64,000 nt of DNA from an uncultured Bacilli bacterium (GTDB taxonomy: Bacteria > Bacillota_I > Bacilli_A > RFN20 > CAG-826): contig CAJOML010000002.1 in NCBI GenBank assembly GCA_905235705.1, positions 3,485 through 67,484 of the forward strand, given 5' to 3'. How positions within the stretch are numbered: the stretch's first letter is position 1; each line of letters opens with the position of its first letter. The position numbers and the translations under genes are program-made. Positions 4,243 to 41,125 of this stretch are shown piece by piece. Under the pieces are notes generated by a model. That model ran no database searches and was not told the origin of the DNA. It saw only the letters and a program-made list of their open reading frames with translations.

Positions 4243-5248
4243 TTTCGTCTTCTTTTAAAACGACGTTATCCAATTGCCGTTTTTCGGCTTTCTTAACAAG
4301 GTAATAGGTTAATGCAACCATGCCGATGCCGAGGACACCGCCAAGGGCGAATTGCCACCAGGCATTTAATAGACCCGTCGCATCGTGATAGACCCCATAC
4401 ATTTCGTGGTTCACAAACATGGAAACTAGCGACCCGAAGACAAAGCCGACAACAAAGCCGAAGGTGCCACGGCGGTGATTGGCTAAAAGTTTTTTCACCG
4501 CGACCGAAACCGAGACAAAACCCACCAACATGCCGACCAGGAGCACCACCAAAATAAGTAGACGTGCCCATACGTTTTCCGAGGATTCGAAGATGGAGGC
4601 ATGGTTAGGAATGATACTTCCGTCATATGGGTCGCGGTCGGAAATGAAGATGGTCAAGATGGGGTTAAACATCGAGAAGATATACATGACCATTGATCCT
4701 GAAATCCCGGGAATCAAACAGGCCACCGCAGAGAAGAAGCCCATAAATAAGACGAGGGCATATATCCAAGGGGAGGCGAAAGGATTATAAAATTCGGTGT
4801 AGAAATCCCAGTTGATTTGGATGACACCTGCAGCCGATAAATACGAAGCGATGCCAATGCCGGCGGAAATCGCGAATCCTAGGGCGATACGGAGGAAATC
4901 CTTCCAACCGAGTTTGTCGCCTTTAAGTTCCTTTGTCATGATGGGAAGGCCGCCGATGACAAAGCCAGCCAAAACGGCGATGGTGATAAAAGGGAAATAT
5001 AAATATGCGAGTTTTTTCCAGAAGATAATGAAGATAAAGGTCCAAACCAAGCACCCTAAGGCGATGGGGGTGAGGGCTAGTAAGGATGATTTAAATGTTT
5101 TCTTCGCCCTTAAGCCGGCGATAGAACCAATAAGTTTGTCGTAAACATTAACGATAAAGCCGACAGTGCCCACGCTGACACCGGGAAGGATGCCGGTTCC
5201 GAGGGCGGACCCCTTAAGTAAATCGGTTTGCCAAGTCTTCAGTTTCAT
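4235..5248 (-). CDS. DUF368-family polytopic membrane protein (PopT-like polyprenyl-phosphate transporter candidate)
   Basis: 337-aa ORF, hydrophobic throughout. Has the duplicated DUF368 signature: LPGVSVGTVGFIVNVYDKL near the N-terminus and IPGISGSMVMYIF mid-protein. Confidence 0.65.
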   Translation of the reverse strand: MKLKTWQTDLLKGSALGTGILPGVSVGTVGFIVNVYDKLIGSIAGLRAKKTFKSSLLALTPIALGCLVWTFIFIIFWKKLAYLYFPFITIAVLAGFVIGGLPIMTKELKGDKLGWKDFLRIALGFAISAGIGIASYLSAAGVIQINWDFYTEFYNPFASPWIYALVLFMGFFSAVACLIPGISGSMVMYIFSMFNPILTIFISDRDPYDGSIIPNHASIFESSENVWARLLILVVLLVGMLVGFVSVSVAVKKLLANHRRGTFGFVVGFVFGSLVSMFVNHEMYGVYHDATGLLNAWWQFALGGVLGIGMVALTYYLVKKAEKRQLDNVVLKEDENA

Positions 5249-5255
5249 AACGAAA

Positions 5256-5261
5256 AGTATA
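5256..5261 (-). promoter_or_regulatory. -10-like hexamer close to the start codon (leaderless-type), DUF368-tetR operon
   Basis: TATACT on the minus strand, 7 nt before the ATG (5248). No SD. Overlaps the palindrome 5259-5278. Confidence 0.4.
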
Positions 5262-5278
5262 AATGTTTAATCATTTAT
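5259..5278. promoter_or_regulatory. Candidate TetR operator (palindrome)
   Basis: ATAAATG-TTTAAT-CATTTAT with perfect 7-bp arms, in the 56-nt divergent region between the DUF368-tetR operon and the flavodoxin gene. Confidence 0.4.
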
Positions 5279-5287
5279 GGGGAAGTT

Positions 5288-5296
5288 TGTGTTAAT
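5288..5296 (+). promoter_or_regulatory. Extended -10 close to the start codon (leaderless-type), flavodoxin-pth-mfd
   Basis: TGtGTTAAT, 8 nt (CTTTCCGC, no SD) before the ATG at 5305. Confidence 0.4.
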
Positions 5297-5304
5297 CTTT
5301 CCGC

Positions 5305-5847
5305 ATGCGTACATTAGTGCTTTATGAATCTAAGACGGGTTCAACCAAAAAATATGCCGAAGAAATCGCCCGTTCGGTAAACGGGGACATCCTCCCTGCC
5401 AAAAAATTTAAGGCAAAGATGATCCAAGATTATGACACCTTTGTCTTTGGCGGTTGGGTGATGGGCGGCAAAATCCAAGGTCTTGACCGTTTCCTCTCCT
5501 TCTATGACGAAATGAAAGAAGGCCATGATATTTTGATTTTCGCCTCGGGCATGTCCATCGTTTCCAAAGAAAGCAGGGATTCTTTGATTTCTAGCAACAT
5601 CCTTGATTTATACCACGTTCGTTTCTATCAATTACGTGGGTCGTTTGATTATCAAAAGCTTAATCTGGTGAACAAAATTCTCATGTCCAACTCCCTTCGT
5701 ATGATTGATAAGGACCCGAAGGCGAGTTTTGACCAAAAGGCCTTGCTCGACATCAAAGAGCACCCCATCGAATATTATGACCGCGCCGGATTAGACCGCA
5801 TCATCTCCGTTTTGCATAAATTATCCGCGATTGGAGGCGAAGCGTGA
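5305..5847 (+). CDS. Flavodoxin-domain protein (HemG/flavodoxin_5-like)
   Basis: 180-aa ORF. MRTLVLYESKTGSTKKYAEEIA matches the flavodoxin FMN phosphate-binding loop (S/T-x-T-G-x-T). Confidence 0.6.
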   Translation: MRTLVLYESKTGSTKKYAEEIARSVNGDILPAKKFKAKMIQDYDTFVFGGWVMGGKIQGLDRFLSFYDEMKEGHDILIFASGMSIVSKESRDSLISSNILDLYHVRFYQLRGSFDYQKLNLVNKILMSNSLRMIDKDPKASFDQKALLDIKEHPIEYYDRAGLDRIISVLHKLSAIGGEA

Positions 5848-31081: not shown

Positions 31082-31975
31082 ATGAAATTTGGAAGATTTC
31101 GCCTTGGTTTGGCTCGTTTGTTCCTCGAAAGATCTCAACGTAAGGGCAGGAAACATCAGCCATCGCTTGCCAAATATCAAAATTTTATGGACGTGAGCCC
31201 AAAAAACGGAGCCAAAGACCATTTTTGTTATGACGTTATTTTGGCTGACAAAGAGAATTCCAAAGGCATTACCTTAATCGATATCCATGGTGGGGCTTAT
31301 GTCACGGCCACAAGAAAGAACAACCATGGTTTCATGGAATATTTCCTCAAGAAAGGCTTTGATACGGTCCTTCTCGACTATCCTTTAAACAATGGAAAAA
31401 GAGGGGTGGATGATCAATTCGCCGCCATCGTAGACGAATTTAACCATCTTGTTCAAAGCATCGAGAAATATGGTCTTAGTAAAAAAGTCTTTGTCACAGG
31501 CGATTCGGCAGGCGGACATTTCGCTTTGCTTCTTGCCGAAGCTATTTGCGATCCTAAATTAGCTAAGACTTTTGGGCTTCATCCAGGCGACCTCCAGATG
31601 TGCGGGGTCTTAGCCAATTGCCCTGTCTATGATTTTGAAAGAATCGGCTATCTCATGCCGATGACAAAGAATGCCCAAAAACGCTTATTCGGTCCCTTAT
31701 ATCTAAATCCCGAGAAGACCGCCTTATATTCCCCCAAAGCAAACCTTGAATCTTTGAATTGCCCTATCTTCCTATCAAGTTGCAAAAGGGATTTTCTCCT
31801 TGGCGAATATCAATCTTTTTGCCAAGATGCCAAAAGCCTTGAAAAGAACTTAACAGTCGTCTTTATCGATGAAGATGATCCAAAAGTAGGGCACGTTCAT
31901 AACATTTTAGATGTAAGCGACCCCTTTGCTATCGAAGTTAATGACGCGATGGTCGCGTTTATGGAAAGAAACTAA
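31082..31975 (+). CDS. Alpha/beta-hydrolase, HSL/esterase-lipase fold-3 type
   Basis: 297 aa. Oxyanion-hole DIHGGAY and nucleophile elbow GDSAGG. The exact start is uncertain. Confidence 0.75.
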   Translation: MKFGRFRLGLARLFLERSQRKGRKHQPSLAKYQNFMDVSPKNGAKDHFCYDVILADKENSKGITLIDIHGGAYVTATRKNNHGFMEYFLKKGFDTVLLDYPLNNGKRGVDDQFAAIVDEFNHLVQSIEKYGLSKKVFVTGDSAGGHFALLLAEAICDPKLAKTFGLHPGDLQMCGVLANCPVYDFERIGYLMPMTKNAQKRLFGPLYLNPEKTALYSPKANLESLNCPIFLSSCKRDFLLGEYQSFCQDAKSLEKNLTVVFIDEDDPKVGHVHNILDVSDPFAIEVNDAMVAFMERN

Positions 31976-33543
31976 CGATATAAATTGAAGCCTCTTGAGG
32001 TCTGGCCTTTATAGTTTGAAGCGTTAATCACCCCACCTAGTTCATTTTCAGCATAGGCAAAGGTGATGTCCACCGGGTAAGATTCATCGACTTCATAGAT
32101 GTCGGTTTTAAAGTTGTTATCGTAGAAGTAGTCATAGACCTTTGCTTCGTTTTGGTGATAGAAGAGGTAATCGATGACGGCGACTGTGTAATATTTATCC
32201 GCGTCCAAAGAGGGATAAGTCGAAGGATCGCCTGTATAAGTTTCGTTATAGTAGGCCTCATTCAGTATATCGCTTCCGCGGCAGGAGGCGATGACGATGC
32301 AATTGGTAAAGGGCATCGCCTTATACATGGCCGAATAAGTAACCTCGCCGGCGGACACGGTAGCCCGTTGTTTGTTCTGCATCGCGAGAACGAGGTCGGG
32401 ATATTTGGTCTTATATTTGCTATATATGGCCTCACAGGCTAAATCCGAAATTTGGTAGGCATCAAGGTTCCCGTTTTGAAGTGTTAACGGAGTTCTATTG
32501 ACCTTATTTAGATATTCGGGTTTTTGCAGGAAATCTTCGCATATCGCAGAGATTTTGGCGGATTCTTGCCAGTTTTTTGAAGCTGAAATGCTCTCTGCTT
32601 TTTTCGTGGTAACCGTTTCTCCGACTTCAAGTTGAAGATGGGACAAGGCTTCCCCGTTGCAATAGGATTGCAGGGCCATGACGTTGAAAATATTTTGGTT
32701 ATTTGCCTTGTGGGTATGGCCGCAGAATATGCCATCAAAATAATCTTTCATTTGCGAAGCGACTGACCACCTAGCGACAGTGGTGGAATCATCGTGAATG
32801 ACTAGAATCGTTACGGCGCATCCTTCCGCCTTTAATTTCTTGGCTTCCTCGACGGCATATTTTTCAGGAGCATCAAAATTGAGACCCTCAACGTGGCGGG
32901 AAGTAATAGAAGTGGTTTGCCCCTCTCCTATCATGCCGACGATGCCGATTTTTAAACCGCTCCTTTCGATAATCGTTGAGGCGTCAAATCTAGGGTCATC
33001 GCCCAAATCGGTGGTTTTATCGACCTTTCTGATGTTGCCTCCAAGAATCGGGAAGTTCGCCGCTTCTTTAATTGTCATCAAACGTTCGAGGTTGTAGTCG
33101 AATTCGTGGTTACCAACGGCCATTGCATCGAAACCAACCGCATTCATCGCCGCGGTGACCAGTAAGCCGTAATTGGCATTGCTTTCAAGCGATCCTTGGA
33201 ACATATCCCCAGCAGACAAAATGACGACATGGTCTGGGTCTTTCGCTTTTAGTTCTTCTAGGTGACCGAAATACTTCTTAATCCCGGATTCGTAATATCT
33301 CCCGTTCATTCCTTCCGTAATCGAGCCGTGGAAATCGTTGACGCAATAGAAGTCGAGCGTCTCCTTTTTTGGCGAAGAAGAGGAAGAAGTGGTCGTCTGA
33401 GTCGAGGAACTGCTTTCTCCTGAAGGAGAAGAGCTAATTTCACTGCTTGAAGAGGCTTCGCTTGAAGGCGAGGAATTTACACCACATCCGGCAAGAGAAA
33501 AAACAATTAAGCAAGAAATTATTAATTTCTTTGAGTTTTTCAT
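31972..33543 (-). CDS. Lipoprotein, bifunctional metallophosphatase/5'-nucleotidase family
   Basis: 523 aa. Signal peptide plus lipobox LAGC and a Ser-rich linker. Calcineurin-like motifs DFHG, GDMFQG, GNHEFD; C-terminal 5'-nucleotidase domain. Confidence 0.8.
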   Translation of the reverse strand: MKNSKKLIISCLIVFSLAGCGVNSSPSSEASSSSEISSSPSGESSSSTQTTTSSSSSPKKETLDFYCVNDFHGSITEGMNGRYYESGIKKYFGHLEELKAKDPDHVVILSAGDMFQGSLESNANYGLLVTAAMNAVGFDAMAVGNHEFDYNLERLMTIKEAANFPILGGNIRKVDKTTDLGDDPRFDASTIIERSGLKIGIVGMIGEGQTTSITSRHVEGLNFDAPEKYAVEEAKKLKAEGCAVTILVIHDDSTTVARWSVASQMKDYFDGIFCGHTHKANNQNIFNVMALQSYCNGEALSHLQLEVGETVTTKKAESISASKNWQESAKISAICEDFLQKPEYLNKVNRTPLTLQNGNLDAYQISDLACEAIYSKYKTKYPDLVLAMQNKQRATVSAGEVTYSAMYKAMPFTNCIVIASCRGSDILNEAYYNETYTGDPSTYPSLDADKYYTVAVIDYLFYHQNEAKVYDYFYDNNFKTDIYEVDESYPVDITFAYAENELGGVINASNYKGQTSRGFNLYR

Positions 33544-33549
33544 GCTTAG

Positions 33550-33558
33550 ACTATACCA
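33550..33558 (-). promoter_or_regulatory. Extended -10 close to the start codon (leaderless-type), 5'-nucleotidase lipoprotein
   Basis: TGgTATAGT on the minus strand, 6 nt (CTAAGC) before the ATG (33543). Confidence 0.45.
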
Positions 33559-33581
33559 TTAGTAAGACTTCGGGAAAAGAA

Positions 33582-34445
33582 ATGATTGATGCTAGCTTAA
33601 CGATTCAAGGTGGAGGAGCCCGCGGCGCATTCGTGGCCGGGGTTTTAGACGTCTTGATGGAAGAGGGCATTTCTTTTGGTGAGGTCTATGGAACTTCGGC
33701 TGGTGCACTAAATGCCGTCAACTATATTTCAGGAGACATTGGCCGTTCCCATTACATCGTCACTAAATTGATGGCGGATCATCGCTTCGTCTCCATTCCT
33801 CGCCTCATTTTCAAAGGAGAGTTGTTTAATTTCGATTATTTGTTTCATGTCGTTCCTAAAACAAAAGCCCCATTCAACGAAAAAGCTTTCTTTGATAGCC
33901 CCGTTCGTTTCTTCGCCACATCGACTTGCTTAGAAGATGGAAGCGCGGCTTATATCGAAAAGACACAAGACAAAGAAAGAACCTATGCATCAATCGCGGC
34001 TAGCTCCTCTTTGCCTTTATATGCAAAGCCCGTTGTTATCGATGGAAAGCATTATCTTGATGGCGGACAAGTCGCCCCGATGCCCTTCCGTAAAGCGCTG
34101 GAGAGCGGACGCAAGAAAATCGTCGTAATCCTCACCCGAGAATATGGCTTCGTCCAACCTGAGCCTAGCCAAAAATCCATCGCTAAGGCAAAGAAGGTCT
34201 TTAAAAAATACCCCGATTACATCAATGCCTTTATCAACGGGTCATCCGTTTATAACCGAGATATGAGGGAAATCGAAAAACTTGAAGGCGAAGGCCGTCT
34301 ATTCGTTATTCGACCTTTGGTCGCCCCCGGGGTTAAAGTGGCCGAACGCAATTACGAAAAGCTCGAAGCCCTCTATTTGGTGGGCAGAGATTGTGCCAAG
34401 GCCCGTCTCCAAGAACTAAAACACTATCTAGAAATCGATGAATAA
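33582..34445 (+). CDS. Patatin-like phospholipase
   Basis: Start at MIDASLTIQGGGARGAF (GGxRG oxyanion motif). GTSAG nucleophile elbow and a DGG catalytic Asp block. Confidence 0.85.
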   Translation: MIDASLTIQGGGARGAFVAGVLDVLMEEGISFGEVYGTSAGALNAVNYISGDIGRSHYIVTKLMADHRFVSIPRLIFKGELFNFDYLFHVVPKTKAPFNEKAFFDSPVRFFATSTCLEDGSAAYIEKTQDKERTYASIAASSSLPLYAKPVVIDGKHYLDGGQVAPMPFRKALESGRKKIVVILTREYGFVQPEPSQKSIAKAKKVFKKYPDYINAFINGSSVYNRDMREIEKLEGEGRLFVIRPLVAPGVKVAERNYEKLEALYLVGRDCAKARLQELKHYLEIDE

Positions 34446-35499
34446 AAACGCCGTCAAACCAAAAGAAAGAAACAAAGGCTTAGTCGATCCAAGCCAAATC
34501 AAGGAGTTCAACGTCTACGTTGAGACCAAACTCCTGGATTTTTTGCTATTCAAATTGCCTTCTACCCCGCGGAAGAATGTGAAGACCATGCTTTCCAAAC
34601 ACTGCGTGGCTGTCAATGGGGTGCCTGTTTCCCAATTTGATTACCCACTTGTCAAAGAAGACGTTGTCACCATTTCTAAAACGCCGATTACCAAGCACGC
34701 CAGGAAAGACCTCCCCATTATTTATGAAGACGAAGATATTATCGCCATGGATAAGCCTTCGGGTCTCCTTTCCGTCGCCACTGACCGCGAAAAAGGCAGG
34801 ACCGCTTATCGCTTGATCTCGGATTATGTGGCGGCGAAGAATCCTAAGAACCGCGTTTATGTGGTTCATCGCCTTGATGAAGACACCTCGGGCATCTTGA
34901 TATTTGCCAAATCGAACAAAGTCCGCGAGGCCCTCCAAAACCATTGGCAAGAAATCGTGAAAGACCGCGGTTATTACGCGATTGTTGAAGGGGAAATGGA
35001 AGAAAAAAGCGCTATTTTGCGGGATTACCTAACGCAAAACGACCTCCATTTGGTCTTTGTGACGAAGAACAAGACAATCGGGAAATTATCGATTACCAAA
35101 TACCAAGAGATAACTTATCGAGCCCCTTATTCGCTACTTGATGTTCACATTGATTCGGGACGTAAAAACCAAATCCGCGTCCAACTTGGGCATCGTGGAC
35201 ATTATGTCATTGGCGATGATAAATATGGCGAACCAGCCAACCCGATCGGGCGCCTTGGTTTACATGCCTACTCATTGATTTTTACCAACCCATTAAATGG
35301 CAAAGAATATCGATTTAATTCACCAATGCCGGATTCGTTCAAACAACTGATGTTTGGCAAGAAGGCCCCTGCAAAGGCCTTGACGAGTGCAGAGAAACAA
35401 AAACGCGACACTTATAGTCAGACCCGCATCAAAAAGGGGCAGGCAAAGAAACCTGATTATTTCGGACAAAGCAAGAAAGGAGGCCGCCATGGACATTAA
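34438..35499 (+). CDS. RluA-family 23S rRNA/tRNA pseudouridine synthase with basic C-terminal tail
   Basis: 353 aa. S4-like N-domain, catalytic HRLDEDTSG motif and GRKNQIRVQL. The Lys-rich tail overlaps the next gene by 11 nt. Confidence 0.85.
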   Translation: MNKNAVKPKERNKGLVDPSQIKEFNVYVETKLLDFLLFKLPSTPRKNVKTMLSKHCVAVNGVPVSQFDYPLVKEDVVTISKTPITKHARKDLPIIYEDEDIIAMDKPSGLLSVATDREKGRTAYRLISDYVAAKNPKNRVYVVHRLDEDTSGILIFAKSNKVREALQNHWQEIVKDRGYYAIVEGEMEEKSAILRDYLTQNDLHLVFVTKNKTIGKLSITKYQEITYRAPYSLLDVHIDSGRKNQIRVQLGHRGHYVIGDDKYGEPANPIGRLGLHAYSLIFTNPLNGKEYRFNSPMPDSFKQLMFGKKAPAKALTSAEKQKRDTYSQTRIKKGQAKKPDYFGQSKKGGRHGH

Positions 35500-37084
35500 T
35501 CGCGGACGTTATTGGTTATTGAAACTGCGCGAAGCCACTTTTTCGGCCCTTCCTATCGCCCTTGTCATCGTTATTTTCTTCCTTGTCACCCGTTTCGCCC
35601 TACCTGCCGATACGTTCACCGACGCTTCGGGGAATAGCTATGCTTTAGGCGATTCCACCATGATTGGCTTTAGTATCGCCGTCATCATGATTGTCTTTGG
35701 GATGACCTTATTTAATGCCGGTACCGAAGAATCGATGGCCGAAGTAGGAAAAATTATCGGTGGTTCATTAGTTAAGAAGAAAAATTTCTTCTTTGTTCTT
35801 GCGATGACCTTTATCTTGGGGGTCTTAGTCACGATTGCCGAACCGGATTTGACTGTCCTATCTAGTCAAATCGGCCTTCCCTCTATGGTCATCATTATTA
35901 GCATTGGCGTAGGTGTAGGTCTTTTCCTCGTTATCGGGGTTATTCGTATCTCACTTAAGCAGGACCTGCGTTTAATGTTCCTCGCTTTCTATGCATTGGC
36001 ATTCACCCTAATTTACCTTGTCGATCCACGTTTCCTGCCAGTTTGTTTTGATTCTGGCGGCGTCACGACCGGACCAGTTACCGTTCCTTTCCTTCTTGGC
36101 TTTGGTTTAGGGCTTTCCGCCTCGCGTAAAAGCGGGCGAGGAGGAGATGATTCCTTCGGCTTGACCGCTTTATGCTCAATCGGCCCGATTTTGGCTGTGA
36201 TTATCATTTCTTTGATTATGAGAGCCACCGGAACTGGACTCCCGGCCGCTTATCCGCTAGAAGTGCCAGACGCCAATAATTTATGGGGCAATTTGTGGTC
36301 CGCAACGAAAGTTAACCTATTTGATGTGGCTTTGTCTATCGGTCCATTGCTGGTTTTCTTCATTATCTACGAGTTGATTTTCATTCGCTTAAGCTGGAAA
36401 GCCATTGCCCGCATCATCATCGGCATGTTCATTACTTATGTTGGGCTCGTTTTGTTCCTTTCTGCCGTCACGTGGGGCTTTTTGCCGGTCGCCCAAACGG
36501 TTGGCTTTATGCTTGGAAGCCAGACAAATTTCCATTATTGGGCGATGGGTATAGGTGCCTTATTTGGAATATTTGGGGTTTTAGCCGAGCCGGCCATCCA
36601 CGTTTTAATCGAACAAATCGAAACCGTGTCTCAAGGAAGTATCAAAAAAGGCAAGGTCTTGATGGTATTGGCTATTTCCAATGGATTTGCCGTTTTCATG
36701 CATGTCGTGCGTGCGCATTTTGGCTTCCCCATCGTCTATTATTTGATTCCTGGATACATCCTTGCCTTTATTTTGGCTTTCCTCGTACCGAAGATTTATA
36801 CCGCGATGGCGTTTGATTCCGGTGGAGTTGCTTCGGGACCAATGACATCGACTTTCGTCTTGCCTTTCTGCATTGGCTTAGCGGTTTCGATGGGGGCTGA
36901 CGTCTATTTATATGGCTTTGGTTTGGTGGCGATGGTGGCGATGATGCCATTGATCGTCATCCAAGGTATGGGCTTAAGCGCCGTCTTAAAACAAAGGCAC
37001 GCCCTTACTAAAGCCAGAAAACGTTTGGTTGAAGAAAACGATGACCAAGTTATCCACTTTAATGTTGAGGAGGTGCAGTTATGA
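35489..37084 (+). CDS. Internally duplicated (fused) DUF1538-family polytopic membrane protein, putative transporter
   Basis: Start at MDINRGRYW (35489), after AAGGAGG. The two halves share the motifs AEPDLTVL / AEPAIHVL and FDSGGVTTGPVTVPF / FDSGGVASGPMTSTF. About 12 or more hydrophobic segments. Confidence 0.7.
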   Translation: MDINRGRYWLLKLREATFSALPIALVIVIFFLVTRFALPADTFTDASGNSYALGDSTMIGFSIAVIMIVFGMTLFNAGTEESMAEVGKIIGGSLVKKKNFFFVLAMTFILGVLVTIAEPDLTVLSSQIGLPSMVIIISIGVGVGLFLVIGVIRISLKQDLRLMFLAFYALAFTLIYLVDPRFLPVCFDSGGVTTGPVTVPFLLGFGLGLSASRKSGRGGDDSFGLTALCSIGPILAVIIISLIMRATGTGLPAAYPLEVPDANNLWGNLWSATKVNLFDVALSIGPLLVFFIIYELIFIRLSWKAIARIIIGMFITYVGLVLFLSAVTWGFLPVAQTVGFMLGSQTNFHYWAMGIGALFGIFGVLAEPAIHVLIEQIETVSQGSIKKGKVLMVLAISNGFAVFMHVVRAHFGFPIVYYLIPGYILAFILAFLVPKIYTAMAFDSGGVASGPMTSTFVLPFCIGLAVSMGADVYLYGFGLVAMVAMMPLIVIQGMGLSAVLKQRHALTKARKRLVEENDDQVIHFNVEEVQL

Positions 37085-37512
37085 ACGAAAAAGATTACGT
37101 TCCTTTTGAACGAACCCACCGTTTACGCCCCTTATATTTGGTGATCGCGGTTGTCGGTAGAGGCCAAGGAGACGCTATCTCAGGATTATTCTTAAATCAC
37201 GAGGCTTATTTCTCCGTCATCCACAAAGGAACGGGGACGGCTCCACGGGATTTCTACGCTTTCCCTGGGGCTGCCGTACCAAAAAAAGACGTCGTCTTCT
37301 CTATCATCAAGCAAGATAAATGGCCGATTTTACGAAACATCTTAAAGGAACGCTTTGCCATCTCCAAAGTCTCTTCTGGGGTTTGCTCCGTCATCCCCAT
37401 AGATGCCATCTCAGGCGTCTCGATATATAAGATGCTAAGCAATACCAGGCAGTTTGAAAAACCTGTCAACAAATACCCACGAGCCAAAAAGGAGGCCAAA
37501 AAGCATGAATAA
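37081..37512 (+). CDS. Divergent PII-like (GlnB-superfamily) protein, paralogue A
   Basis: 143 aa; ATGA overlap with DUF1538. The beta-alpha-beta-loop-beta-alpha-beta pattern (LYLVIAVVGRG..., SVIHKGTGTA, VVFSIIKQD, GVCSVIPIDAISGV) is co-linear with the next ORF. Confidence 0.5.
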   Translation: MNEKDYVPFERTHRLRPLYLVIAVVGRGQGDAISGLFLNHEAYFSVIHKGTGTAPRDFYAFPGAAVPKKDVVFSIIKQDKWPILRNILKERFAISKVSSGVCSVIPIDAISGVSIYKMLSNTRQFEKPVNKYPRAKKEAKKHE

Positions 37513-37828
37513 CCAATACGAATCCATCTTCTGCATTGTCAATAAAGGCTATACCGACCTCGTAATGGAGTCGGCCCGTTCGGCCGGAGCCCGGGGTGGC
37601 ACCGTTTTGAGCGGACGTGGCACCGGAAATAACGATTCCGAACAATTTTTCGGCGTTGTCGTTACGCCCGAGAAAGAAATCGTCATGATTCTTGTCGAAC
37701 AAGGAATTAGAGACGCTGTCTTAAATGCCGTCAACAAAGGGGCTGGTATGGACACCAAAGGCATGGGAATCGCCTTCTCTATCCCCGTTAGCGACGTTGT
37801 TGGAATCCCCGGAGTGGAAACGAAATAA
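37505..37828 (+). CDS. PII-family signal-transduction protein, paralogue B
   Basis: Start at MNNQYES (37505), an 8-nt overlap (ATGAATAA). SIFCIVNKGYTDLVMESARSAGARGGTVLSGRGTGNND...EIVMILVEQ...GMGIAFSIPVSDVVGI fits the PII fold with a T-loop-like insert. Confidence 0.65.
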   Translation: MNNQYESIFCIVNKGYTDLVMESARSAGARGGTVLSGRGTGNNDSEQFFGVVVTPEKEIVMILVEQGIRDAVLNAVNKGAGMDTKGMGIAFSIPVSDVVGIPGVETK

Positions 37829-37831
37829 AAA

Positions 37832-40800
37832 ATGGCTGAACTAAGAGAATTTGCAAATCGGAAGACCCCATCGCAATGGATGAGAGCCCATATGGGCTTC
37901 CTTTTCAATCCGATGAGCACTTTCTATTTCGGCGTTTTTACTATCCTCCTTTCCATGCTTTGGATGGGGTATGCTCTTATCACCAACGAATTCACGCAAC
38001 TTCTAAATTGGGACTACACTTGGCAGTTCGTCCCCTTTTCCTACGATTATTACGATGCCTGGCATACTTTCTTTAGCACCGGGCATTTCCCTTTATATGA
38101 CGGCGGCGTTTTCTTAGGAACCGATATGATCGGGTCGGGCTCGTATTATGGGTTATTCGATCCTTTTATCATCGCCATGGGAATTTTCCCGAGGAACTGG
38201 ATCCCGAACGTGTACGCGGTGATGACCTTCTTCCGCTTCGCCGTCAGCGCCCTTCTAATGCGAAGCTATTTGAAGTATCTTGGCTGCAAAGAATGGACGG
38301 CCCGTATCGGGGCAATCGCTTATGCTTTCTCCGGCTTTGCCACTTTCATGTCGGGGTTCCCCAACGTTTTGACCGCAACCGTTTATATCCCCATGATACT
38401 TTGGGGTATCGAGCGCGTTCTAAAAGAAGGAAAGCCAGGTGTTCTCATTTGGGGCGTTTTCTTGGAGGGCGTGACATCGTTTTTCTATCTTGTCGTCGCC
38501 TGTATATTCGGAACGATGTATGCCTTGTGGCGTTATTTCGTTCGTATTAAAACAAGAACGAAACAAGAGAATATCAAAGTCTTAACGATGGGCATTTGCG
38601 CTTTCGCCGTCGGTTTGATGCTTTGCGCCTTTACGTGGGTCCCTTCGGTGAGGGAATCCGCCTTATCTGGACGCGCCTCATCGATTGGCTCGGCTTACAT
38701 GCATTCAATCCTTAATTCTTTGAAGAGCCACGATTTCGCTGAATTCTTCTCGCTGATTTTTGAAGAAGTAGGCGATAATCCTGGCCGCGAATTGATGGGG
38801 GTTATATCTTTCTTCTTCCCCACCGGCGGATTTACCCGTCTCCCCTTAGCCAATAGCGGATATGATGCTTGGACGGCTGCCTTATTCTGCTACACGCCAA
38901 TCGTCATTTCCTTCTTCATGGCCGTTTTCCAATCCTTGATGAAACGGAAATGGAGCCATATTATCGCGATTTTGATTTGCACTTATTTCGTTTTAACGAA
39001 CCTCTCCTATTTCCTCTTCTACGCCTTCTCTGGCAACGGATATGGAAGGTGGTATATCGTCTTGGTGCCGGTTATTATCGCTTACGGCTGCTGGGGCTTC
39101 GATTTACGTCACGAAGGATCTCGCTTTATTCCTCTTGCGGCCTCGTTAGTGACTTTAGGCATGACGATTGTCGTCTTTTATTTAACCATCTCTTTGCTTG
39201 GCGGGAAGACATTTAACGGAACCGTTTATAACGTCCATAACACCACCTATTGGCAATCAACCTACCATACAGCCGATGAAGTATATGATGGTCTCCACAC
39301 GGCTTGGTATTTGTATTATCAAATCGCCATCATCGTTACCGAATCGATCGTTTTATTTATCGGTTATCGCAAAGAATGGATGCCTAAGGTTCTCTTTGGC
39401 TGCCTTGTTGCCGAAGTGATTGTCATGGGGAATTTGACCTACCCCTTTAACGGGCTTTGGAGCTATACGAATTCTTATGGGAATGGGGCTAATGCGGTCA
39501 ATAATTCAACGTCATTAAATATGACGATAAAAGCCCAGGATAATTCCTTCTATCGCGTCCATAATGATATGGAAAGAGGATCCTCTTATTTATTCAATAT
39601 TGCAGGTTATAACGCCGCAATCTCCTTTCATTCACTCATGAATTTCGAGGTTGAGGACTTCGCTTTTAATAACCAAATGAAGAATGTTGGCTCTACCAAT
39701 ACCACTTATGGTGGAACCACCACATACAACCCCAATTGGAGCGGCGCATACCGTCATAAACGCTTCGTGACCGACACCATTCTCAATTACCGTTATTACA
39801 TGGTAGAGAACAATTATTCCGGCTATAAGGACCCCCAAGGACAAGGTTATTTCTTCGAACCCAACGTTCCGTTTGGGGCGGTTGAAATCCCATCTAAACT
39901 AGACCGCAATAAATATCGCCTTTATAAAATGGAAGACGATGTCCTTCCTCAACTTGGCTATGCCGTCAAAGACGATTCCCTGTATTATCTTGGCCATGAT
40001 CCGGAGAAGGATTCCTATCTTTCTTCGTTCTATTCCAATTCCTCTTATACGCAGGCCTTCCGCGAAATGGAAAGAGCCCAGGAAGTCGAATTGACGGGGG
40101 CAATGCTCGAAGATAATTTCGACCTGGAAGGATTCAACATCAAAAAAGAAGTGCCTTCCGTCGATACCGATGAAAAGCTTGAAGAAAATTTTGGCTTATA
40201 TCGTTATTTCAACGGCCACGGCGTCAAAGTCAGGAAATACATCACCGGGTTAGCTAAAAACGATCTTTTGATTCCCGATTCTTCTGCTCCCTATGCAGGC
40301 GAAGGGCTTGCTTATTTCCTTAATCATTATGTCTCTATGGAAGACGTCGTCACGATTTCCAGCACCAGCGTAAAAAGAGACGTCGGGAAATTGGTCTTCC
40401 ATAATGATGATGGATATTTAAATGACGACCCACGCGGATGCTATTTTGATTTCCATTATTTTACCGATTCTAAAGATGCAGCCCCGCGCATTTATGCGAT
40501 TGGCGACAAGTTCGACGAAAAAGGCGAAAGAATCGAGACCAATGCAGTTCTTGGATTTGAAAATTACGCGGTTCAAGCGGCGATGAATTCTTCTTATTGG
40601 TCTAACAAAATGGCGACTTTCGGGTTATATGCCAGGGGCAAAGTCAAATATTTAGTCCTTTGCTACCCCGGCAATGGGGATATGACGGTTTCAATGTCGA
40701 ATGTCTTCTTTACCAAAAAGGAATACAGCGAAATCGAAGACACGTACACTTATTTACAAGAAAATAAACTGCTCAATGTTAAAACTGACGTGAACACGTT

Positions 40801-41125
40801 TACCTTTGATACGGATTACGAAAAAGACCGCGTTGTCGTGACGACTTTGGGCTTTGATAAAGGGTGGGAAGGCACCGTCTATCTGCCAAATGGCAAAACG
40901 GAGCCATTAAAGACATTTAAAGTCGATGGCGGCCTTGTTGGCTTCCTTGCTCGTGGCGAAACTGACCAAACCTATCATTATGAGCTTCGTTATAAGACGC
41001 CCTATTCCAATCTTTCTGTCGCTGCTTGGGTGGTAGGCACCCTCACCTTTGGCGGATATTTGGCCTGCGCCTTTGTAATGGATGTCAGGAAAAAGAAAAG
41101 GGAACTTGAAGCTCCCCTTGCTTAA
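37832..41125 (+). CDS. YfhO-family (GT-C fold) large membrane glycosyltransferase-like protein
   Basis: 1097 aa, starting 3 nt after the PII gene. The N-terminal block WDYTWQFVPFSYDYYDAWHTFFSTGHFPLYDGGVFLGTDMIGSGSYYGLFDPF resembles the YfhO signature. Has 12 or more TM segments, a ~500-aa extracytoplasmic domain and a C-terminal TM. Confidence 0.6.
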   Translation: MAELREFANRKTPSQWMRAHMGFLFNPMSTFYFGVFTILLSMLWMGYALITNEFTQLLNWDYTWQFVPFSYDYYDAWHTFFSTGHFPLYDGGVFLGTDMIGSGSYYGLFDPFIIAMGIFPRNWIPNVYAVMTFFRFAVSALLMRSYLKYLGCKEWTARIGAIAYAFSGFATFMSGFPNVLTATVYIPMILWGIERVLKEGKPGVLIWGVFLEGVTSFFYLVVACIFGTMYALWRYFVRIKTRTKQENIKVLTMGICAFAVGLMLCAFTWVPSVRESALSGRASSIGSAYMHSILNSLKSHDFAEFFSLIFEEVGDNPGRELMGVISFFFPTGGFTRLPLANSGYDAWTAALFCYTPIVISFFMAVFQSLMKRKWSHIIAILICTYFVLTNLSYFLFYAFSGNGYGRWYIVLVPVIIAYGCWGFDLRHEGSRFIPLAASLVTLGMTIVVFYLTISLLGGKTFNGTVYNVHNTTYWQSTYHTADEVYDGLHTAWYLYYQIAIIVTESIVLFIGYRKEWMPKVLFGCLVAEVIVMGNLTYPFNGLWSYTNSYGNGANAVNNSTSLNMTIKAQDNSFYRVHNDMERGSSYLFNIAGYNAAISFHSLMNFEVEDFAFNNQMKNVGSTNTTYGGTTTYNPNWSGAYRHKRFVTDTILNYRYYMVENNYSGYKDPQGQGYFFEPNVPFGAVEIPSKLDRNKYRLYKMEDDVLPQLGYAVKDDSLYYLGHDPEKDSYLSSFYSNSSYTQAFREMERAQEVELTGAMLEDNFDLEGFNIKKEVPSVDTDEKLEENFGLYRYFNGHGVKVRKYITGLAKNDLLIPDSSAPYAGEGLAYFLNHYVSMEDVVTISSTSVKRDVGKLVFHNDDGYLNDDPRGCYFDFHYFTDSKDAAPRIYAIGDKFDEKGERIETNAVLGFENYAVQAAMNSSYWSNKMATFGLYARGKVKYLVLCYPGNGDMTVSMSNVFFTKKEYSEIEDTYTYLQENKLLNVKTDVNTFTFDTDYEKDRVVVTTLGFDKGWEGTVYLPNGKTEPLKTFKVDGGLVGFLARGETDQTYHYELRYKTPYSNLSVAAWVVGTLTFGGYLACAFVMDVRKKKRELEAPLA

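Follow-up and report, generated by a model that had tools for sequence, protein, structure and literature searches.

A double-DUF1538 membrane protein encoded with two PII-like paralogues: a candidate PII-regulated transport module in an uncultured Bacilli bacterium

We analyzed a 64,000-nucleotide stretch of DNA from an uncultured Bacilli bacterium (GenBank assembly GCA_905235705.1, contig CAJOML010000002.1, positions 3,485 to 67,484; hereafter the window). It encodes a membrane protein built from two DUF1538 domains and, immediately downstream, the products of two small open reading frames (ORFs), here called A and B. As judged from sequence comparison and structure prediction, both small ORFs encode PII-fold proteins that are paralogues of each other. 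The three genes stay together in every related locus that we inspected, and natural gene fusions join the encoded partners. We think it rather probable that this module represents a cation/proton-coupled DUF1538 transporter, which is regulated by a dedicated and probably heteromeric pair of PII-like proteins.

Results

The membrane gene and the two PII-like genes form a conserved module. We surveyed 80 genome and 2 metagenome loci (L001-L082) from Bacilli, several Clostridia families and Bacteroidales, and used an A profile and the B sequence to search every ORF in them. A and then B are found directly downstream of the membrane gene, in the same order, in 82 of 82 loci. They are separate genes in 51 of these and are fused to each other in 31, giving an A-B protein of about 225-280 amino acids. 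With three further loci (L085, L094 and L095), A followed by B accompanies the fused DUF1538 gene in 85/85 cases. If we add six loci in which the two DUF1538 halves are encoded by separate genes, DUF1538-PII adjacency is found in 91 of 91 loci other than the window, from Bacillota, Bacteroidota and Alphaproteobacteria. Clustering all ORFs of the 82 loci yielded no other conserved neighbor, only the module itself. Because the three-part layout recurs in every related locus examined, the arrangement is far beyond chance. The fused module is present in gut and rumen Bacilli, Clostridia and Bacteroidales, and the fused transporter is contained in more than 8000 clusters at 90% identity, with at least 597 matches in species-representative genomes. 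Culturable carriers of the module include Paraclostridium bifermentans, Peptoclostridium acidaminophilum and Mediterraneibacter glycyrrhizinilyticus.

Gene fusions occur in all three combinations. A Peptoclostridium megaplasmid encodes the fused transporter together with a 222-amino acid A-B fusion that is annotated as 'P-II family nitrogen regulator'. In a 654-residue protein (P0238), found with identical sequence in two assemblies, an A domain is attached to the C terminus of the double DUF1538 protein, and its gene is followed by a 120-amino acid B-type gene. The A-B fusions imply that the two PII-like proteins are present in a 1:1 ratio, unlike in a simple PII trimer. In one Bacteroidales locus (L070), A-type and B-type matches lie in overlapping frames (4526-5320 and 4608-4991), which suggests a frameshift or a sequencing error inside an A-B fusion gene. 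The linkage in 91/91 loci, the fusions and the lack of any other conserved partner gene nearby together argue for a direct physical and functional tie between the transporter and its PII-like neighbors.

The genes of the module and their ribosome binding sites are located in the window as follows:

35476..35483, plus strand: Shine-Dalgarno sequence AAAGGAGG of the membrane gene, 5 nucleotides upstream of its ATG (sequence reading)
35489..37084, plus strand: double-DUF1538 membrane gene, 531 amino acids (ORF list, Pfam)
37067..37073, plus strand: Shine-Dalgarno sequence GAGGAGG of ORF A (sequence reading)
37081..37512, plus strand: ORF A, PII-like, 143 amino acids (ORF list)
37489..37495, plus strand: Shine-Dalgarno sequence AAGGAGG of ORF B (sequence reading)
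37505..37828, plus strand: ORF B, PII-like, 107 amino acids (ORF list)

The membrane ORF is open from a GTG at 35387, and the 531-residue product starts at the ATG at 35489, which overlaps the 3' end of an upstream gene for an RluA-type pseudouridine synthase (stop at 35499). The TGA of the membrane gene and the ATG of ORF A share an ATGA overlap, and the ORF A stop overlaps the ORF B ATG in ATGAATAA. These overlapping starts and stops, each with a separate Shine-Dalgarno site, look as would be expected of translational coupling.

PII-like proteins A and B

ORF B passes the PF00543 model (33.3 bits; cut-off 25, Pfam) and aligns end to end with GlnB, with a T-loop that is 6 residues shorter. 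The motif SGRGTGNND corresponds to residues 36-44 of B, and the motifs GARGGT, RGTG, PEKEIV and GIAF place the protein in a DUF1538-associated PII subfamily. In PII proteins, R38, Q39, K58, K90, R101 and R103 are the ligands of Mg-ATP/ADP and 2-oxoglutarate, and Y51 is the modification site. In B, we find R38, Q39, K90, R101 and R103 replaced by N, N, I, G and P, respectively, and Y51 by F. Retained are the glycines of the pocket (the equivalents of G27, G35, G37, G87 and G89), T29, K58 and F92. Because canonical ligand residues have been lost, a GlnK-like mode of ATP and 2-oxoglutarate binding cannot be assumed for B. The best solved relative of the B profile is NifI1 (9p1x, E=4.4e-8); PotN is matched weakly (E=0.013) and SbtB barely (E about 0.4).

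ORF A has no match in Pfam (E<=0.01) or NCBIfam and is thus not a PF00543 member by hidden Markov model (HMM); two A-family profiles likewise found nothing meaningful among the PDB sequences. BLASTP aligns A with B at 21% identity over 94 amino acids (E=1e-5), and a profile of 75 A sequences matches a profile of 23 B sequences with a probability of 99.0% (hhalign, E=4e-18). An AlphaFold2 (AF2) model of A has a mean predicted local distance difference test score (pLDDT) of 90.3 and the core order beta-alpha-beta-beta-alpha-beta. Its top Foldseek matches in the PDB are GlnK1, PII, PotN (7o4x), CutA, SbtB, CPII and PstA (E about 2e-5), and it also matches chain 7egk_B of the SbtA-SbtB complex. 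Based on the BLASTP and profile-profile matches to B and on the modeled structure, A is a PII-fold protein and a divergent paralogue of B. The motif HKGTGTAPRD occupies residues 48-57 of A, and the protein is extended at the N terminus and has a conserved helix (GVSIYKMLSN) at the C terminus.

An exhaustive profile search returned 1246 representative clusters for the A family (E<=1e-3). Many of the 150 best A-profile matches listed contain two matched stretches, and one is the 654-amino acid protein P0238 described above. Another A-profile match is found in P0151 (335 amino acids), in which the first ~100 residues match the A profile (E=3e-25) and residues 93-307 form a TsaD/Kae1 domain; it represents either a genuine fusion or an error of assembly or gene calling.

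Architecture of the DUF1538 membrane protein

The 531-residue membrane protein matches PF07556 (DUF1538) in two stretches (351.4 bits; gathering score 22.6; E=1.7e-105, Pfam), and its two halves align with each other at 28% identity over 179 amino acids (E=4e-15). The nearest named models are UmpA and UmpB (NCBIfam NF041627 and NF041628), for which the protein scores 128.1 and 106 bits, compared with equivalog cut-offs of 490 and 500. UmpAB orthology was rejected on these scores; the split DUF1538 pairs discussed below also remain far under the cut-offs. An AF2 monomer model (pLDDT 88.3, predicted template modeling score 0.87) and hydropathy together give 14 membrane passes. Since 26 Lys and Arg residues fall in the predicted inside loops and 4 in the predicted outside loops, the protein is expected to have both termini in the cytoplasm and two halves of seven transmembrane (TM) helices that are inverted relative to each other. 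We found no solved relative of the membrane protein in a PDB sequence search and none by Foldseek at E<=1e-3; the best Foldseek matches (CLC and MATE proteins, E=8.5e-3, template modeling scores of 0.1-0.2) are not meaningful.

The following motifs of the membrane protein were located in the window:

35837..35860, plus strand: AEPDLTVL motif of half 1, residues 117-124, predicted outer face
36047..36091, plus strand: FDSGGVTTGPVTVPF motif of half 1, residues 187-201, at the break between model helices 180-192 and 198-212
36584..36607, plus strand: AEPAIHVL motif of half 2, residues 366-373, predicted cytoplasmic face, the inverted counterpart of AEPDL
36812..36856, plus strand: FDSGGVASGPMTSTF motif of half 2, residues 442-456, at the break between model helices 435-449 and 451-468
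37040..37060, plus strand: DDQVIHF tail motif at the cytoplasmic C terminus of the transporter (alignment, model)

Two FDSGG motifs are placed at breaks of membrane helices in the AF2 model. In 88 sequences, including the proteobacterial split forms, conservation reaches at least 95% at E118, P119, D120, D188, E367, P368, Q376, R408 and D443. Q127 and R153 do not vary in an alignment of 54 sequences and are present in 5/5 split forms checked. Such pairs of carboxylates on broken membrane helices would be expected of a path for cations or protons.

In the DDQVIHF tail, D518 and H523 do not vary among the 54 sequences, and Q520 and I522 hardly do. The segment has a pLDDT of about 50-60 in the monomer model, as expected of a stretch that would fold only on a binding partner, and the fused A domain of P0238 starts directly after it. 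DDQVIHF may thus be considered a candidate docking element for the PII-like partners.

Split DUF1538 pairs and the origin of the fusion

The six split loci come from alphaproteobacterial plasmids and from metagenome or draft-genome contigs. In 6/6, genes 1 and 2 are followed by one PII gene, which encodes 108-122 amino acids. Two of these PII genes, both from alphaproteobacterial plasmids, were aligned and are 37-40% identical to B and thus of the B type; B and these two PII proteins have the motifs GARGGT, RG(T/I)G, PEKEIV and G(I/L)AF in common. The N-terminal half of the window protein is nearest to gene 1 and the C-terminal half nearest to gene 2 of the split pairs (31-36% versus 22-28% identity). 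Because the halves correspond to the two genes in this way, the membrane protein is a covalent fusion of an old heterodimer of homologous 7-TM subunits. B is the ancestral partner, and A is a later duplicate that accompanies the fused form. Against the UmpA/UmpB models, the split proteobacterial pairs score 81-135 bits.

In a Methylocystis rosea plasmid (L083) and a Chelativorans plasmid (L084), the split pair and its PII gene are plasmid-borne. The Methylocystis module is flanked by IS66 and IS4 transposase genes, and gene 1 of the Chelativorans module is shortened to 90 amino acids. The split module seems to move horizontally and sometimes to decay. In another split locus (L092, 1111-4073), a gene for a CitMHS-family transporter is located directly upstream of the DUF1538 pair and the PII gene. 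In the Halomonas umpAB clone, part of a citrate transporter gene is likewise located upstream, with a gene for an MFS permease between it and umpA. The citrate-transporter neighbor at these two loci may be a coincidence.

Genomic neighborhood and regulatory signals

The module is part of a block of six head-to-tail genes on the plus strand (33447-41125), the stops and starts of which overlap or nearly abut. Their order is patatin-like phospholipase, RluA-type pseudouridine synthase, DUF1538 protein, A, B and a 1097-amino acid YfhO-family protein, with the YfhO-family ATG located 3 nucleotides past the ORF B stop. Convergent minus-strand genes begin at 41122. The six-gene order is also present in L001 and L002 and is confined to ~11 close relatives. 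Despite the 3-nucleotide spacing, we rejected a functional tie of the module to YfhO, since YfhO and RluA are recurrent neighbors in no more than 11 loci, all of them closely related. On the minus strand (31972-33543) is a gene for a predicted 523-amino acid lipoprotein with a signal peptide ending in LAGC and a long serine-rich linker. Its homologue in L001 has weak metallophosphatase and faint 5'-nucleotidase matches in Pfam, and in relatives a gene for the manganese exporter MntP lies beyond the lipoprotein gene.

No promoter-like site was found within 33447-37831; three weak matches lie inside yfhO (38020-38964), and such matches are fewer in the whole region than in shuffled sequences. 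There is no convincing terminator inside the six-gene block, the weak terminator-like matches being located in coding sequence. Rfam was blank across the whole window and returned only tRNA and rRNA for 15 diverse loci, so that neither a riboswitch nor another RNA gives a clue to the substrate.

An earlier note on this DNA, written from the letters and their translations, had anticipated much of the above. It described a 531-residue membrane ORF of two homologous halves, the AEPDLTVL/AEPAIHVL and FDSGGVTTGPVTVPF/FDSGGVASGPMTSTF repeats and the loop motifs SGRGTGNND and HKGTGTAPRD, all of which are present in their places, and gene overlaps of the kind seen in translational coupling, to which the separate Shine-Dalgarno sites can now be added. 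It had also recognized A as the more degenerate paralogue, with extensions at both ends. The neighborhood survey that it had set beforehand as a test found the DUF1538-PII adjacency kept in all loci. Its expectation for HMM searches was borne out for PF07556, found twice, and for PF00543 in B; A has no Pfam match. The PII fold that it had proposed for both small ORFs is seen for B by Pfam and for A by structure prediction with Foldseek and by profile-profile comparison.

Discussion

In the mechanism we favor, the membrane protein would act as a secondary transporter of the DUF1538/UmpAB family. E118, D120 and D188 in the first half and E367 and D443 in the second, together with Q127/Q376 and R153/R408, are arranged pseudo-symmetrically on the broken helices and would likely line the ion path; this set of acidic and polar residues points to cation/proton-coupled transport, as has been reported for UmpAB. 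A and B would be made in step with the transporter from overlapping, Shine-Dalgarno-led frames. They would probably co-assemble and dock on the cytoplasmic side of the transporter, possibly via the DDQVIHF tail, and could permit or shut off transport according to a small-molecule signal. Precedents are GlnK, which plugs AmtB, and SbtB, which plugs SbtA, both being PII-type proteins that act on a co-encoded transporter.

The module shares with these two systems a small PII-fold gene beside a transporter gene in a conserved operon. It differs in that the transporter belongs to an unrelated family whose model has no solved structural relative, in that two different paralogues are present instead of one PII protein, and in that B has a T-loop shorter by 6 residues and replacements at R38, Q39, K90, R101 and R103. 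The use of two different PII paralogues, which the earlier note had called unusual, is indeed so. Its count of a third PII-transporter pairing is too low, since PotN, a PII-like protein of firmicutes, works with PotABCD, and the ABC transporters for nitrate, urea and bicarbonate of cyanobacteria are under PII control as well. A close parallel for a two-component PII set is NifI1-NifI2 of methanogens, in which two co-encoded PII paralogues act together and which includes the nearest solved relative of B. There, two NifI1 and one NifI2 form a heterotrimer, whereas the A-B fusions imply equal numbers; the target is nitrogenase, a soluble enzyme that is inhibited, rather than a transporter; and the canonical ADP/ATP and 2-oxoglutarate residues are intact in NifI proteins, which is not so in B. 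PotN and PstA/DarA, which are likewise PII-like and come from Gram-positive bacteria, rank high among the structural matches of A, but they are not encoded beside DUF1538. By sequence reading, the GGFL motif of the c-di-AMP receptor PstA, as quoted in PMC6516651, is absent from both A and B. As in P0238, a PII-like domain is tied to a polytopic membrane protein in the YitT/DUF2179 protein BB0017 of Borrelia, which however has a YitT membrane domain of 4 TM helices and a single PII-like domain with truncated loops (PMC6516651).

Contrary to the earlier note, DUF1538 is not functionally uncharacterized; a function already assigned to it was one of the findings that the note had named as refuting its proposal. 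The DUF1538 pair UmpA and UmpB of Halomonas zhaodongensis, for which NCBIfam equivalog models exist, were reported in 2017 to form a heterodimer with pH-dependent Na+(Li+,K+)/H+ antiport activity in E. coli KNabc (PMC5484666). Like UmpAB, the window protein matches PF07556 and consists of two homologous 7-TM units that would work together, its halves matching gene 1 and gene 2. It differs from UmpAB in being a single 531-amino acid chain, the fused equivalent of two separate subunits, and in being co-encoded with two PII-like proteins, whereas UmpAB was studied without a PII partner. UmpAB was active in E. coli from a clone with only the two membrane genes (PMC5484666), as would be expected if PII modulates transport and is not an indispensable subunit. 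The 4.2-kb clone ends with umpB, so any downstream gene would have been lost from it, and PII is unmentioned in the paper (PMC5484666). A machine-learning study counts PF07556 among its key gene features of pH adaptation, beside Mrp, Kdp and Trk (PMC13255231). Publications naming DUF1538 or PF07556 contained no link to PII, and literature that treats PII-like proteins together with antiporters, membrane proteins or gene neighborhoods, judged mainly from titles and abstracts, did not describe the pairing. RefSeq annotation puts 'P-II family nitrogen regulator' beside 'DUF1538 domain-containing protein', so the adjacency is visible in annotation; we could not find a published description of it.

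Several observations weigh against regulation of a cation/proton transporter by A and B as outlined above. B has lost R38, Q39, K90, R101 and R103 and has the shorter T-loop, so that it need not plug the transporter with a long T-loop as GlnK does. The 1:1 ratio implied by the A-B fusions does not fit a simple PII trimer, and the transporter-A fusion is known from a single lineage. The antiport activity of UmpAB was claimed in one paper, from complementation of E. coli KNabc and from everted vesicles (PMC5484666), and the window protein and all split forms tested score far below the UmpA/UmpB cut-offs. The UmpAB substrate assignment thus transfers weakly, and the substrate may differ. It could be ammonium, bicarbonate, a divalent metal or an organic ion, for example, with the antiport of UmpAB representing a side activity. 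The equivalog scores would agree with this, as would the fact that the cargo of known PII-gated transporters consists of nitrogen or carbon nutrients and the absence of a Na+, Li+ or other riboswitch upstream. The conserved carboxylates in the membrane favor cations, however, the sole experimental datum for the family is alkali cation/H+ antiport (PMC5484666), and PF07556 keeps company with Mrp, Kdp and Trk among pH-adaptation features (PMC13255231). We consider a different substrate rather unlikely, while taking it seriously.

Two further explanations concern the role of A and B, and both appear improbable to us. The DUF1538 protein could serve as a membrane-anchored signaling device that detects a solute or ion flux and either captures the PII-like pair or frees it to act on other cytoplasmic targets, much as sequestration of GlnK by AmtB controls DraG. 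PII proteins commonly have multiple targets, B is nearest in sequence to NifI1, a regulator of an enzyme and not of a transporter, and gene expression is affected by Borrelia BB0017, in which a PII-like domain is fused to another kind of membrane protein (PMC6516651). Yet there is no third conserved partner gene near the module in the 82 loci, the A-B and transporter-A fusions are permanent and fit local action better than release, and the related UmpAB does transport ions (PMC5484666). Alternatively, A and B may be an obligatory structural cap needed for assembly, stability or energy coupling instead of responding to a ligand. The strict linkage in 91/91 loci, the loss of canonical ligand residues in B, the high divergence of A and the fusions in every combination would all be compatible with such a cap. 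It is at odds with the finding that UmpA and UmpB alone gave antiport in E. coli (PMC5484666), and B keeps the glycine-rich loops of the pocket (G27, T29, G35, G37, G87, G89) and K58, which argues for a surviving ligand site.

A dedicated PII-like pair regulating a DUF1538 transporter thus remains our preferred interpretation. In an extended form, which we put forward tentatively and consider slightly less likely than not, A and B would constitute a second heteromeric PII complex after NifI1,2 and would gate, with a non-canonical ligand mode, a transporter family that is widespread in gut Firmicutes and Bacteroidota and has a fold without a solved relative. The single B-type PII protein of the split proteobacterial pairs would then represent the ancestral form of the system, and UmpAB, the sole characterized member, would have been examined in the absence of its regulator.

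Few signal transducers are as widespread as the PII proteins. To our knowledge, only a handful of their transporter targets are understood, and a single heteromeric PII complex has been described. A PII-regulated transporter as such is of a known kind; we rate as unusual the two-paralogue PII set, the non-canonical ligand residues and the fold without a solved relative. The module is compact, with three genes whose natural fusions make the partners obvious, and it offers a tractable way to give DUF1538 a physiological role and a regulatory logic. With it, one could test whether Na+/H+ antiport, as reported for UmpAB, is the activity under regulation. It could provide the first structure of this transporter fold, and could reveal how a PII pair senses a signal without the canonical ligand residues.

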